From contig JBHLPL010000116.1 in assembly GCA_048939465.1 (NCBI GenBank), positions 1-5,906 on the forward strand: 5,906 nucleotides of DNA. The letters run 5' to 3'. This DNA is from Promethearchaeota archaeon. GTDB lineage: Archaea > Asgardarchaeota > Odinarchaeia > Odinarchaeales > JBHLKK01. Position 1 is the stretch's first letter. Every line of letters begins with the position of its first letter. Positions 3 to 3,222 of the stretch are shown piece by piece. A program made the position numbers and the translations under genes. The notes below the pieces were generated by a model. The model was given only the letters and a program-made list of their open reading frames with translations. It did not search any database and had not been told where the DNA came from.

Positions 3-251
3 GTGGGCTCGATCTTCGAAGCGCTAGGGTATCTCATACACAGAAGGCTCATAGACAAAGATTTTGTCTGTGATGTTATAGGCGAATCAACCATGATGAG
101 TTGGGAAAAGGTCAAACCGATGATAGAAGACGCTAGAGAACAGCTGGGTCGGCGAATATCGGGTGAATATCTCCCTGTATTCAAATGGTGGGAATACATC
201 TATAGCGAAGTGAAAAAAAGTTGTACTAGTTACCATACTAGTACACGGTGA
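3..251 (+). CDS. DUF4760-like hypothetical protein, C-terminal part (5' end outside the window)
   Basis: The frame is open from the window edge. IFEALGYLIHRRLIDKDFVCDVIG..WEKVKPMIEDAR...F.WWEYIY resembles the DUF4760 pattern (FE.lG.lv..glid.....W....p.I...R.....f..fe.l), judged from memory. The stop TGA (249-251) lies inside the terminal GTGAAC of an IS right end. Confidence 0.65.
   Translation: MGSIFEALGYLIHRRLIDKDFVCDVIGESTMMSWEKVKPMIEDAREQLGRRISGEYLPVFKWWEYIYSEVKKSCTSYHTSTR
213..245 (-). terminator. Perfect 9-bp hairpin followed by a U7 tract on the minus strand
   Basis: TGTACTAGT (222-230) and ACTAGTACA (237-245) form a perfect inverted repeat with a 6-nt loop. The + strand A7 at 213-219 reads as T7 two nt after the stem on the minus strand, directly downstream of the IS right end at 248. 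Confidence 0.5.
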
Positions 252-340
252 ACCGCTCCCAACTTCCGCAGGGAGCTTCCTGCTTCATTCATTCCCCGAC
301 GGGATATATCTGACAGGCTCTACGGACAGTTCCTGCCCTA
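248..340 (-). mobile_element. IS200/IS605-family right end with TnpB omegaRNA (HgcC/sotRNA-like) scaffold; orphan, no tnpB
   Basis: The minus strand reads GGGCAG-GAA-CTGTCC GTAGAG CCTGT...TCCC-GTCG-GGGA..TGAA GCAGG AAG CTCCC-N10-GGGAG CGGTTCAC, the typical architecture at tnpB 3' ends. Guide tetramer GAAG (279-276) and terminal TCAC (251-248) satisfy all three pairings of the IS608 G_R/C_R rule. One frame reads DLGQELSVEPV, like a TnpB C-terminal tail. No matching left end was found in 340-565. Confidence 0.8.
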
Positions 341-408
341 AATCTTTACGTTTGCGAACTGGTGAGTGTTACCTCGACTCAATTCCATATGCTTGTCTTG
401 AAAACAGG

Positions 409-416
409 TATTTAAG
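409..416 (-). promoter_or_regulatory. Possible archaeal TATA box (CTTAAATA) driving the minus-strand omegaRNA-like transcript
   Basis: It resembles the TTWAWATA consensus. A start about 25 nt downstream (~385) would give a transcript of ~150-170 nt ending at the 213-245 terminator. This rests on motif and position only. Confidence 0.3.
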
Positions 417-565
417 CTCCTCGCAATTCATATCCTCCCTCTCGGATTGAATCTCCTTGGGGAGAAAAAGATAAAGTTCCCTAATAATATCACTAGTAAA
501 GGAGTAATCTAAAATAGCTGAATGGAAAAGATAATTTCTAGGTGCACGTTCGGAGTTGAAATGCT

Positions 566-1561
566 TTGAGGAGAATAACTGCCGTTCAATATGGTTTGGG
601 ACCAATAGGTTGCATGATTGCCCGATTGGCCAGCAAAAGAGGAATTGAGATCATAGGGGGGATCGATATCGATAAGCAAAAGATAGGAAAGGATGTTGGT
701 CAAGTTATTGGAATAGATCCTCTTGGCGTAAGAGTCGCCAATAATGCAACAGAATTCTTATCAAAAAGGAAACCAGATATAGTCTACCTGACTACCGTAT
801 CCTGCCTTAAGGATCTTATGCCTCAGCTCGATCAATGCATTGATGCGGGCGCAAACGTAATTTCTACGGCAGAAGAACTCGTTTATCCGTACGCTCAACA
901 TCCGGAGTTGAGCATCAAAATAGATGAGAAGGCGAAAAAGAGACAAGTTACAGTATTGGGTACTGGAATAAACCCTGGCTTTCTTTTCGATACCTTCATC
1001 GTATCTATAGCTGGCCTCTGTGAGAGTATTAACAAGATCAAATGTATACGCGTACAAGATGCGGCAAAAAGAAGACTGTCTCTTCAAAGGAAAATTGGGG
1101 CGGGTCTTTCTAGGGAGGAATTTGAAACTCAGATTCTGAGCAAAAGGGGTCATGTTGGTTTTATTGAATCTATAAGAATGATCGCAGATTCCCTGAAGTG
1201 GAATGTGGAGAAAATCTCGCAGGAAATGGAACCAATAATGGCGGAAAGGAGTGTCAAGAGTAACTACATAGAGGTTGAATCCGGCAAAGTTGCTGGAATC
1301 AAACAGACAGCAAGGGCCCATGTAGATGGAGAAGAAAGGATAGTTCTTGAAATACAATTCTACATAGGAGCCGAGGACCCTCATGATTCCATAAGTATCG
1401 AGGGGTCACCTCCGATACAATTCCACAACAAGACAGGGATAGATGGCGATGTTGCGACAACCGCCCTGGCTGTAAATATGACATCAAAAGTCATTGAAGC
1501 ATCTCCAGGTCTAAAAACCATGCTTGATCTTCCACTTTCATCTGACATTCTCAAACTATGA
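566..1561 (+). CDS. NAD(P)-dependent amine dehydrogenase, 2,4-diaminopentanoate dehydrogenase (Ord)-like / DapB-like N-terminal Rossmann domain, 331 aa
   Basis: TTG start with GGAGTT at 552-557. It has a Rossmann GLGPIG, an acidic beta2 end (GIDID), VISTAEE (the catalytic Glu motif of native AmDHs), GTGINPGF and GHVGF. RVQDAAKRRLSLQRKIGAG differs from the canonical Ord RVND motif, so the substrate is uncertain. Confidence 0.85.
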   Translation: MRRITAVQYGLGPIGCMIARLASKRGIEIIGGIDIDKQKIGKDVGQVIGIDPLGVRVANNATEFLSKRKPDIVYLTTVSCLKDLMPQLDQCIDAGANVISTAEELVYPYAQHPELSIKIDEKAKKRQVTVLGTGINPGFLFDTFIVSIAGLCESINKIKCIRVQDAAKRRLSLQRKIGAGLSREEFETQILSKRGHVGFIESIRMIADSLKWNVEKISQEMEPIMAERSVKSNYIEVESGKVAGIKQTARAHVDGEERIVLEIQFYIGAEDPHDSISIEGSPPIQFHNKTGIDGDVATTALAVNMTSKVIEASPGLKTMLDLPLSSDILKL

Positions 1562-1573
1562 TCTGACTAAGAG

Positions 1574-1579
1574 GGAGGT
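1574..1579 (+). promoter_or_regulatory. Orphaned Shine-Dalgarno (GGAGGT), probably the original RBS of the aminotransferase
   Basis: It lies 12 nt after the dehydrogenase stop. GGAGG ends 7 nt before the element boundary at 1586, where no start codon now follows. Confidence 0.6.
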
Positions 1580-1585
1580 TCATCA

Positions 1586-1646
1586 GTAAACTATCCCTCC
1601 TTGCGGAATGGGCCTGTAAACTACTCCTCCCTTCTGGAAGGAGCCT
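1586..1646 (-). repeat. Head-to-tail imperfect tandem duplication (30 + 31 bp) of the right-end hairpin plus TAGTTTAC
   Basis: On the + strand, 1586-1615 GTAAACTATCCCTCC-TTGCGGAATGGGCCT and 1616-1646 GTAAACTACTCCTCCCTTCTGGAAGGAGCCT match at 24 of 31 aligned positions. Both fold on the minus strand (GCAA and AGAA loops). Confidence 0.85.
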
Positions 1647-1760
1647 ATGACTATGCTAGACCTTGATTCCCTTGCGTGCTTTAGCCTCATCACACGCCAA
1701 ATCAGGGGCGGTTTACAGCGCCCCAGCCCGGCAATCCGCGTATGACGTCGGACTACGGAG
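1586..1760 (-). ncRNA. Putative TnpB omegaRNA scaffold
   Basis: The hairpin GGGGCG-CTGTAAAC-CGCCCC (1724-1705) has an 8-nt loop complementary to the terminal GTTTACAG (1621-1614), consistent with a pseudoknot. Further stems are TGATT/AATCA, GCGTG/CACGC and TCCG/CGGA. One frame reads GAVNRP*, resembling the TnpB C-terminal tails that overlap this scaffold type. The 5' boundary is uncertain. Confidence 0.65.
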
Positions 1761-1899
1761 TTTAACTTACCTACCTGCATCGGTTGTTAACCATTTCCAC
1801 ATAAGAGAGATGTGTGCCTTTAGATCTATTAGTACGTATGGCACAAACTTATCTAAGGATCCCTCAATTTACCTCCGTTCTTTCGGGCGGAGTCTCCTT

Positions 1900-1905
1900 G
1901 AGGTG
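1900..1905 (+). promoter_or_regulatory. Shine-Dalgarno GAGGTG of the aminotransferase, located within the element's left end
   Basis: A perfect archaeal-type SD 6 nt upstream of ATG 1912, at positions +7..+12 of the inferred left end. Confidence 0.75.
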
Positions 1906-1911
1906 GTTAGA

Positions 1912-3222
1912 ATGAAGAAATTTGAAGAATATGAGAATATGACTCCTACCTCCAAGAAATTGTACGAGAAGAGCAAGAAGTTGCTTCCGGGGGGCGTAAG
2001 TCACAACATACGGTTTTTCCGTCCCTACCCTTTCTTCACAAGCAAGGCGCAAGGAGCATACCTCTGGGATGAAGACGGGAATAAATACATTGACTTCTGG
2101 ATGGGTCATATGGCTTGTATTCTGGGCCACGCCCATCCTGCGGTAGTAAAGGCCATCAAAGAGATATTGCCCTCTGGGATACACTGGGGGACTGTCAACA
2201 AGATTGCACTAAGACTGGCCGAAAAGGTGAATGCTGTCGTACCATGCGCTGAAATGGTTAGGTTCTGTAATTCGGGCACCGAAGCCACAATGTATGCTAC
2301 CCGTATAGCGAGAGCTTTTACGGACAGAACTACTGTAATCAAAATGGAGGGAGGCTGGCACGGAGGAAATACCGACCTAATGATTGGTGTGGGTCCTCCG
2401 TACAACAAACCGGACACCGTGGGTCTTCCCTATAGAATCTCTGATTGTATCAAACTTGTTCCCTTCAATGATATCCCTAACAGTATGGAGGTTCTCAGAA
2501 GTGTTGGAGATAAACTGGCTTGTGTGATTGTTGAGCCGGTTTTGGGGGCAGGCGGCGTAATCCCTGCAGATAGAGAGTATCTCGGAATGCTTAGGGAAAT
2601 TACCAGAGACCTTGGAGCTCTTTTGATTTTTGATGAGGTGATAACTGGATTCAGGCTCAGCTTGGGTGGGGCTCAGCAACATTATGGGATTGTTCCCGAT
2701 ATGGCAACCCTAGGAAAAATACTCGGTGGAGGTGCTCCGATAGGCGCCGTAGTAGGAAAGAAAGAGATTATGGAGATGGCGGCTCCCGTTGAAAGAGAAG
2801 ACAATAAGGTTTGGATTGGCGGTGGAACCTTCTCCATGAACCCTCTTACAATGTCTGCTGGTCTTGCTACTTTAGAGTTTCTGCAAGGTAATCCAAATAT
2901 CTACTACAGAATCGAAAAGCTGGGAGAAGAAGTTCGGCAGGAATTGGACAATATCTTTGTCAAATATGGCGTGGTGGCTAAGACAAGCGGTATCAAGTCT
3001 TTGTTCGCGATACACTTTCTAAAGAGACTTATAGAACTCAGAAATCCTCGTCAGTATCTAGGGTTCGTAGATCGGGAAAAAGAAGCAGAATATTATCTCC
3101 GCCTTTTGAAACACGGGGTTTTCTTTCTGCCGGGACACAGTGGATCGATTTCCTGTGCACACTCTGAAGAGGAGATTGAAAGATTGCTGGAGGCAACTAA
3201 AGAGGTGGCAAAAACAACTTAA
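1912..3222 (+). CDS. Class III PLP-dependent aminotransferase, glutamate-1-semialdehyde 2,1-aminomutase (HemL)-like, 436 aa
   Basis: Motifs are GAYLWDEDGNKYIDF, ILGHAHP, RFCNSGTEAT, IVEPV, LIFDEVITGFR, TLGKILGGG (PLP-binding Lys269, codon 2716-2718) and GTFSMNPL. The start is set at 1912 by the SD and by the fact that homology begins there; the 1663-1911 extension is non-coding. The divergent motifs (MGHMA, GGWHGG) make true HemL function uncertain. Confidence 0.88.
   Translation: MKKFEEYENMTPTSKKLYEKSKKLLPGGVSHNIRFFRPYPFFTSKAQGAYLWDEDGNKYIDFWMGHMACILGHAHPAVVKAIKEILPSGIHWGTVNKIALRLAEKVNAVVPCAEMVRFCNSGTEATMYATRIARAFTDRTTVIKMEGGWHGGNTDLMIGVGPPYNKPDTVGLPYRISDCIKLVPFNDIPNSMEVLRSVGDKLACVIVEPVLGAGGVIPADREYLGMLREITRDLGALLIFDEVITGFRLSLGGAQQHYGIVPDMATLGKILGGGAPIGAVVGKKEIMEMAAPVEREDNKVWIGGGTFSMNPLTMSAGLATLEFLQGNPNIYYRIEKLGEEVRQELDNIFVKYGVVAKTSGIKSLFAIHFLKRLIELRNPRQYLGFVDREKEAEYYLRLLKHGVFFLPGHSGSISCAHSEEEIERLLEATKEVAKTT

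Follow-up and report, generated by a model that had tools for sequence, protein, structure and literature searches.

Cas12 and Cas9 descend from the intensely studied TnpB and IscB nucleases of IS200/IS605 insertion sequences (IS), and how these elements persist in compact genomes is not fully understood. Y1 transposases of the IS608/ISDra2 type move single-stranded DNA, and they select their targets by pairing between a left-end guide tetranucleotide (G_L) and the target sequence (C_L) at G1:C2, G2:C1 and G4:C4. This mode of recognition is reported for both IS608 and ISDra2, and a change in G_L is said to retarget the element. Non-autonomous relatives of the palindrome-associated transposable element (PATE) type, including terminal-only forms of about 50 nt, are described in Haloquadratum walsbyi (Dyall-Smith 2011, PMC3119063) and in Geobacillus stearothermophilus (Meers 2023, 10.1101/2023.03.14.532601). 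Here we analyse a PATE in an Asgard archaeon (Promethearchaeota archaeon, Odinarchaeales; assembly GCA_048939465.1), inserted at positions 1586–1911 of contig JBHLPL010000116.1 and directly abutting the start codon of a class-III aminotransferase gene. The window analysed is this entire 5.9-kb contig (5,906 nt), from an assembly of 1.96 Mb in 152 contigs that is 91% complete. Our best explanation, to which we assign a probability of roughly 0.6, is that this PATE, docked at a start codon, survives there because its ends mimic a gene junction.

To delimit the insertion, we compared this genome (G000) with those of two other species of the same genus (G001 and G002). The locus is empty in both congeners: the genes on either side are kept at 81–82% identity with nothing between them, and the junctions read ...GGGGGTTCATCA followed by ATGGAAGAG in G001 and ...GGGAGGTAAACTA followed by ATGGAAGAA in G002. 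With position 1585 joined to 1912, the window aligns colinearly with both empty sites and no target duplication is seen, which sets the insertion at 1586–1911, or 326 nt. An earlier reading of this DNA from its letters alone (the sequence-only reading) had proposed a minus-oriented mini IS200/IS605 element lying exactly at a start codon with no duplication, and had predicted an empty allele with just this junction. Every sequence statement it made is present in the window, the element and its placement were borne out, and the allele was found in both congeners, with one detail off: the congener orthologues read ATGG at the start where the window has ATGA. The insertion point falls within a two-gene operon: the last spacer base of the native ribosome-binding site lies on one side and the A of the ATG on the other, and the native site (GAGGGAGG) with its spacer is now 326 nt from the ATG that it formerly served.

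We examined five empty sites: that of the window, those of three insertions in a pyruvate:ferredoxin oxidoreductase (POR) operon on contig C139, none of which is found in either congener, and that of an insertion on C66 that is missing from G002. None has a target duplication, and all junctions are at ATG except that of the first POR element (por el1), at GTG. At por el2, 27 nt beside the right end are also missing relative to the congeners, where they are located between two ATGA sites. A native Shine-Dalgarno motif is present at 5 of 5 empty sites and has been displaced by about 300 nt by the insertions. Presence and absence between species is what we take as the sign of mobility.

The C66 copy (G000:C66:3252-3549), which precedes an isocitrate/isopropylmalate dehydrogenase gene, is present in G000 and G001 (C22) and absent from G002 (C80). 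Its flanking genes group G001 with G002, which implies either that G002 lost its copy by precise excision or that this one site was hit by independent insertions. We considered this copy as a gauge of constraint and dropped it, as its 86.5% identity between species is not above the 84–85% between non-orthologous copies; with identity unremarkable and the flanks grouping as they do, orthology is not separable from parallel insertion or precise excision.

To identify the element, we surveyed its copies and relatives. Positions 1616–1911 are one of 18 full copies of about 300 nt in this genome, all with the boundaries that had been proposed for the window copy, to which they are 67–79% identical. 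About 13 shorter forms consist of a right plus a left end (~104 nt) or of a single hairpin (~47 nt). Drawn on the plus strand, all copies begin GTAAACTACTCC and finish ...GGAGTCTCCTTGAGGTGGTTyAG; we call this family A, and the two congeneric genomes contain 5 and 15 matches to it. The genome has one Y1 transposase gene (tnpA, PF01797; C105) and several tnpB genes (PF07282). In minus-strand orientation, the element's left end is 82% identical over 65 nt to the sequence upstream of the tnpB gene on C70, and its right third is 82% identical over 71 nt, plus the terminus, to a stretch on C55 that overlaps and follows a tnpB gene at its 3' end, which we take to be where TnpB guide RNAs are encoded. 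Elements on C2 and C5, which also bear tnpB, and on C105, the tnpA carrier, match more weakly. Because its ends and putative guide-RNA region match tnpB-bearing elements, the insertion is a non-autonomous IS200/IS605 element of the PATE or miniature inverted-repeat transposable element type, which has lost tnpB and retained both hairpins at its ends, along with a TATA-like box and a putative guide-RNA scaffold.

The element shares the defining features of described PATEs: it is gene-less, with no open reading frame (ORF) matching a protein family in the ORF list and profile search; both ends have subterminal hairpins and no terminal inverted repeats; there is no target duplication; copies are heterogeneous; the ends are common to tnpB- or tnpA-bearing parents in the same genome, with a putative part of the guide RNA retained; and the 47-nt and 104-nt forms recall the terminal-only forms of about 50 nt. 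The hairpins are kept in 30 copies, with G–U pairs and some double changes. What differs is the host, here an Asgard archaeon. A literature search of incomplete coverage, which does not prove novelty, found no report of PATEs at start or stop codons, or of PATE ends replacing a ribosome-binding site or stop codon; the term 'start codon' is absent from the main text of PMC3119063. Start-codon docking with junction-replacing ends would thus be a variant, for which we found no description, of a known kind of element.

IStrons (IS200/IS605 elements with a group I intron), group II introns and inteins likewise insert in or beside a gene and leave its product intact. An Rfam scan of the whole window at E up to 1 returned no known RNA family, intron or riboswitch. 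A reading as an IStron was dropped, as there is no group I intron anywhere in the window at that threshold; unlike IStrons, the element has no ribozyme and nothing is spliced, and the proposed route is the replacement of translation signals at the junction. A cis-regulatory leader or riboswitch of a regulon was ruled out by the empty congener loci, the unrelated genes and the lack of an Rfam match.

To understand how sites are chosen, we tallied the sequences abutting left ends. Read on the minus strand, the window's left end consists of TTCAT, then 19 nt closing in GAGA (+16 to +19), then the hairpin CTCCGCCCGAAAGAACGGAG (1873–1892); on the plus strand the insert finishes ...GGAG TCTC CTTGAGGTGGTTAGA up to 1911, with the ATG at 1912–1914 next. 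The aminotransferase gene opens with ATGAA, the reverse complement of TTCAT, so its start codon is the docking site. The sequence-only reading had treated a target other than TCAT as damaging to its case. Of 31 family-A left ends in the genome, 23 directly adjoin ATG (one of them GTG), that is, they abut TTCAT or TCAT, and 17 of the 23 have A as their fifth base; as the bases after ATG are mostly AA, the target is TTCAT on the element strand. A sister family, B, finishes ...GGAG TCTT CTTGCGGAGAAGAAG followed by ATAA, giving the target TTAT or TTTAT. Guide and target vary together: TCTC occurs with ATGA or ATGG 16 times (4 exceptions), and TCTT with ATAA 10 times, plus 6 cases shifted by 1 nt (2 exceptions), though this is one covarying position between two related families and represents few independent events. 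Under the IS608 rule one guide base pairs with target position 2, and the two vary in concert, with GAGA and TCAT in family A and AAGA and TTAT in family B, and the earlier proposal that GAGA predicts TCNT under the G_L:C_L rule therefore fits. At the right end, where we applied the guide rule by hand to the consensus, TAAG against TTAC fits at 2 of 3 positions in family A, and GAAG against TCAC fits in family B.

The resemblance to IS608 and ISDra2 extends to the 19 nt from cleavage site to left-end hairpin, the seamless empty sites, insertion 3' of the target, and the 4-nt guide 5' of the hairpin that predicts the target (GAGA for TCNT, AAGA for TTNT). In contrast, the targets of those elements are TTAC and TTGAT, the guide here occupies an internal loop that separates the hairpin from an additional lower stem, and the right-end guide TAAG follows the rule only in part. 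TTCAT and TTTAT have been shown experimentally to be the target-adjacent motifs of ISGst5 and ISGst2 (10.1101/2023.03.14.532601), so the target itself is not new. ISGst5 (IscB) and ISGst2 (TnpB2) of G. stearothermophilus thus match families A and B in their motifs, on which the likeness rests; they are bacterial, and ISGst5 carries IscB, not TnpB.

To assess whether docking at ATG means docking at genes, we looked at what the abutted codons open. Thirteen of the 23 abutted ATG or GTG codons open ORFs of 141–797 aa, all intact (one, of 153 aa, is clipped at a contig end), and the other ten abutted ATGs are intergenic TTCAT sites. In seven docked ORFs tested by Pfam, the domains are full length and begin at profile positions 1–9: the class-III aminotransferase of the window, Iso_dh (isocitrate/isopropylmalate dehydrogenase), NTP_transferase, a PFL-like protein, and the POR gamma, alpha and beta subunits. 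The last three belong to a single operon (C139:2510-5570) with one copy before each gene. The share of start sites, 13 of 23, compares with about 10.5% expected from the availability of ATGA sites, an excess of about five-fold (binomial p ~8e-8), where the null is the share of ATGA sites at starts among sites that do not break a gene under a crude gene model. A two-fold error in this null would still leave a clear excess at start codons.

Following the biochemistry of IS608 and ISDra2, the single Y1 TnpA of the genome would have moved the element as single-stranded DNA, and the left-end guide GAGA would have picked the target by pairing with TCAT. Since TTCAT complements ATGAA, start codons and ATGA stop/start overlaps make up many of the usable targets. 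Comparative evidence suggests that copies survive at gene junctions because their ends mimic such a junction. At the left end, the terminal 12 nt, GAGGTG and six further bases facing the host gene, would substitute for the displaced ribosome-binding site; at the right end, the opening four bases, which are G-TAA here and G-TGA in the sister family, would restore the upstream stop in frame where insertion falls at A/TGA or A/TAA.

For the left end, the distance to the ATG is 8 nt from the end of GAGG and 6 nt from the end of GGTG, and Shine-Dalgarno tetramers in this genome peak 7–10 nt before unambiguous starts. CACCTC/GAGGTG (+7 to +12) is conserved at about 90% across 30 copies, as the sequence-only reading anticipated for left ends in general, and the 6-nt spacer at 50–70%. 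The built-in Shine-Dalgarno site of that reading stands in that GAGGTG-N6 directly precedes the ATG, is conserved and has a spacing normal for the genome; its conservation, however, has a rival structural reason in a lower stem, discussed below. All three conditions that this reading had set for its own refutation, on the empty junction, on boundaries and target, and on CACCTC, were checked, and none counted against it. We think that GAGGTG probably serves translation of the downstream gene.

For the right end, the element begins G-TAA on the host-gene strand, as the window copy does on the plus strand; family B begins G-TGA, and variants read G-TAG. Long ORFs that run into right ends do so in the frame nnG-stop in 13 of 17 cases from a regular-expression scan and in 10 of 10 from a set defined by hidden Markov model, a bias that follows from the target containing TGA or TAA together with selection against gene disruption. 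The congeners show what has been replaced: porA ends ATG AAA TGA there, overlapping the ATG of porB, and here ends AAG TAG supplied by the element (por el3), and a neighbour gene on C55 that ends GAA AAA TGA there ends GAA AAG TAA here. From these comparisons, the right end is read as replacing the stop codon of the upstream gene at ATGA or ATAA junctions, and it is notable that its terminus restores a stop at once. The sequence-only reading mentions neither this role nor the published TTCAT target, and does not single out 1586–1615 as an extra right-end stub.

The host-gene strand of the family consensus (30 copies) also contains an open frame of 99 codons, which starts at the right-end TAA and reaches the TGA within the target ATGA, and a second frame whose last ~50 codons close at a TAG immediately 5' of the ATG; a run of at least 84 open codons is kept in most copies. 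An open frame through the element might relay ribosomes to the host ATG. We rejected it as evidence, as 6% of shuffled sequences reach 99 codons and stop-creating variants, at 16 cells versus 27 and 30 in the other frames, are only mildly depleted.

To survey other prokaryotes for such left ends, we scanned one genome per species for the 17-mer GGAGTCTCCTTGAGGTG. The 56 hits compare with about 69 expected by chance, and we used only archaeal hits with the full left-end context; as the pattern includes GAGGTG, they give no independent word on conservation of the motif. These archaeal hits have the whole left-end context followed by 5–6 variable bases and ATGA, in metagenome-assembled genomes (MAGs) of about nine other archaeal lineages (Methanohalarchaeum, Methanoxibalbensis, Methanosarcinales, Methanophagales, Aenigmatarchaeota, Hydrothermarchaeota, Bathyarchaeota, Micrarchaeota and Borrarchaeota). 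In seven of about 20, the ATG opens a full-length gene: threonyl-tRNA synthetase (ThrRS; residue 1 at profile position 1), archaeal S-adenosylmethionine (SAM) synthetase, ribosomal protein S5 (uS5), NFACT, an NTP transferase, an ABC-2 permease, and an ORF of 522 aa that matches Lon protease over a short stretch only. Essential genes behind left ends must still be translated, which makes them the best indirect evidence that the junction works. That an IS200/IS605 clade with junction-imitating ends docks across many archaeal phyla on starts, stops and ATGA overlaps, even of essential genes, and leaves both neighbouring proteins unchanged, is a broader proposition that we place slightly below even odds.

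The left-end context is nearly identical in three of these MAGs, L074 (Methanophagales), L076 (Aenigmatarchaeota) and L096 (Hydrothermarchaeota), and in L074 and L076 the right end is too. Near-identity across three phyla suggests that horizontal transfer was recent or that contigs have been misbinned.

These comparisons also bear on the idea that the insertion inactivated the aminotransferase gene, like other genes behind copies, and that we are looking at young, undecayed pseudogenes. The native ribosome-binding site is indeed displaced by 326 nt and a structured element now stands 5' of the ATG. Yet 13 of 13 ORFs behind copies are intact and the seven tested by Pfam are full length, including all three subunit genes of the POR operon; ThrRS, SAM synthetase and uS5 are found in the same configuration in other archaea; identities of 67–79% between copies mean that they are not very recent; and an older element in the window, at 248–470, has come through two speciations intact with its neighbour genes. 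We regard inactivation as highly improbable.

A more serious challenge holds that the transposon and the insertion are as described, and that the Shine-Dalgarno-like motif and G-TAA are by-products of what the transposase needs (a lower stem, the guide tetranucleotide and a cleavage motif), with no selected avoidance of harm. Copies at start codons would then be tolerated through initiation without a Shine-Dalgarno motif, through re-initiation or through the element's own promoter. Several observations weigh against junction mimicry and for the most part favour this alternative. Conservation of GAGGTG does not exceed that of the element elsewhere, neighbouring positions included. Below the left-end hairpin, CCTCAA and TTGAGG form a lower stem, and a 5x5 internal loop holds the guide tetranucleotide; family B has the compensatory CGCAA/TTGCG at the same places, such that conservation of CACCTC alone is no proof of selection for translation. 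Family B also has GGAG at that position, 6 nt from the terminus, though its target ATAA is no start codon. In the predicted mRNA, that lower stem and the hairpin (minimum free energy -18.7 kcal/mol) mask the GAGG of the motif, in a fold no more stable than those of shuffled sequence (z -0.7). The right-end terminus is the transposase cleavage site by the established IS608 mechanism, and its stop codon may be a coincidence. Methanohalarchaeum has 0 of 6 examined copies at a long ORF. The null behind the start-codon enrichment uses crude gene calls, which count too many sites as non-coding, and it does not separate targeting from survival. A perfect GAGGTG occurs in 10 of 13 genic and 5 of 15 non-genic copies, but most of the latter are micro-elements; as the contrast is confounded with element type, we did not use it as evidence.

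Other observations are harder to fit to a by-product. The excess at real start codons is about five-fold, essential single-copy genes in several phyla sit behind left ends and must still be translated, and GAGGTG is the sole motif resembling a ribosome-binding site within reach of those ATGs. The spacer is fixed at 5–6 nt in length while its sequence varies freely. Any complementary hexamer would make the stem, yet the one present spells an anti-16S, ribosome-binding motif at the right distance, which is suggestive though short of proof. We therefore consider a by-product origin somewhat unlikely and retain junction mimicry as the preferred reading. That the junction-mimicking ends were themselves selected is a more tentative claim, which on present comparisons falls a little short of an even chance.

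A different possibility is that copies have been domesticated as expression cassettes, with promoter, hairpin and ribosome-binding site, and are kept for the benefit of the host by setting gene expression. A TATA-like box conserved about 55–60 nt before the ATG would suit such a role, as would the enrichment of copies at gene starts. The 248–470 element is orthologous in the three species of the genus and conserved at 85–90%, compared with 75–84% for the spacer after it, and between species the C66 copy keeps 86.5% identity where third codon positions keep 64%. The 86.5% does not exceed the level between non-orthologous copies, however, and presence varies between close species at 4 of 5 tested start-codon insertions, the fifth (C66) being common to one congener. 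About half of the copies are at non-genic TTCAT sites, the genes served are functionally unrelated, and the family retains all that is needed for mobility and TnpB guidance. Domestication thus seems improbable to us. The box itself is the presumed promoter of tnpB and the guide RNA, and activity outward from it is possible.

If junction mimicry holds, it would be a new transposon strategy for lowering the cost to the host, silent insertion without splicing, and would explain copies before essential genes and within operons of central metabolism. Gene callers and operon predictors would need to expect inserts of 50–300 nt between a gene and its native signals, and the element would represent a natural, portable cassette of ribosome-binding site plus stop codon, whose docking, guided by TTCAT, suggests how tools for scarless insertion might be designed. 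If the motif is a structural by-product only, the finding shrinks to a well-documented PATE family in an Asgard archaeon.

Table 1 Features of the window: the start-codon insertion, the operon that holds it and the second PATE.
Feature	Position	Strand	Evidence or remark
Second PATE, family-B-like, older	248-470	-	Left end adjoins ATAA at 471; right end G-TGA (248-251) is the stop of ORF 3-251
Upstream operon gene, 2,4-diaminopentanoate dehydrogenase family	566-1561	+	Pfam PF19328, E 1e-47; TGA stop 1559-1561
Orphaned native ribosome-binding site GAGGGAGG (1571-1578) and 7-nt spacer (1579-1585)	1571-1585	+	Adjoins ATG directly in both empty-site orthologues
Extra 30-nt right-end stub: diverged hairpin copy and TAGTTTAC terminus	1586-1615	-	Not in empty sites; ~75% identity to true right end
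Mini IS200/IS605 element (PATE), family A, 296 nt (326 with stub)	1616-1911	-	Left end 1911, right end 1616
Right end: GTTTAC terminus (complement GTAAAC 1616-1621) and subterminal hairpin 1624-1643	1616-1646	-	Consensus fold, pair counts, sharp family boundary
Putative guide-RNA (omega/reRNA) scaffold remnant, GGGGCG...CGCCCC stem	1687-1757	-	82% identity over 71 nt to C55 tnpB 3' region; stem in 30 copies
TATA-like box, family consensus GTATTTAAGG, degenerate in window copy as TTATCTAAGG	1849-1858		Conserved in family profile; also present in left ends of other phyla
Left end: lower stem CCTCAA 1862-1867/TTGAGG 1897-1902, hairpin 1873-1892, G_L GAGA (complement TCTC 1893-1896), 19-nt linker to 1911	1862-1911	-	
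Outward Shine-Dalgarno-like GAGGTG (1900-1905) and 6-nt spacer (1906-1911)	1900-1911	+	Immediately 5' of ATG
Class-III aminotransferase gene, intact 436-aa ORF	1912-3222	+	Pfam PF00202, E 8e-68, profile positions 9-380; orthologues 81% identical

The remaining features of the window and of individual copies are listed in Table 1 or given here. GTAAAC, the complement of GTTTAC, begins at 1586 and again at 1616, and the stub between these positions lies inside the insertion and has no counterpart at the other copies examined; it may be a relic of an earlier copy at the same TTCAT, or may have been brought along from a donor site. The sole family-A element that carries tnpB lies in two parts at contig ends (C70:3-1000 and C55:5721-6043), with overlapping protein sequences. 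Its left end adjoins the ATG of a 174-aa ORF and its right end supplies the stop of the neighbour gene; the flanks are not adjacent in the congeners. A copy at C118:3635-3933 has a degenerate left end, and the sequence next to it resembles, by eye, a tRNA gene's 3' end, on the opposite strand. Another, at C69:24353-24652, precedes a gene resembling, again by eye, ribosomal protein S27ae; its start position reads ACG, and the only nearby in-frame start is the GTG inside the element's GAGGTGG. The second PATE of the window is at the same place in G001 and G002, where it supplies the stop of ORF 3-251 identically. It lies upstream of the operon, flanked by 3–251 and 471–565, and its TATA-like GTATTTAAG (408–416) could serve the operon downstream.

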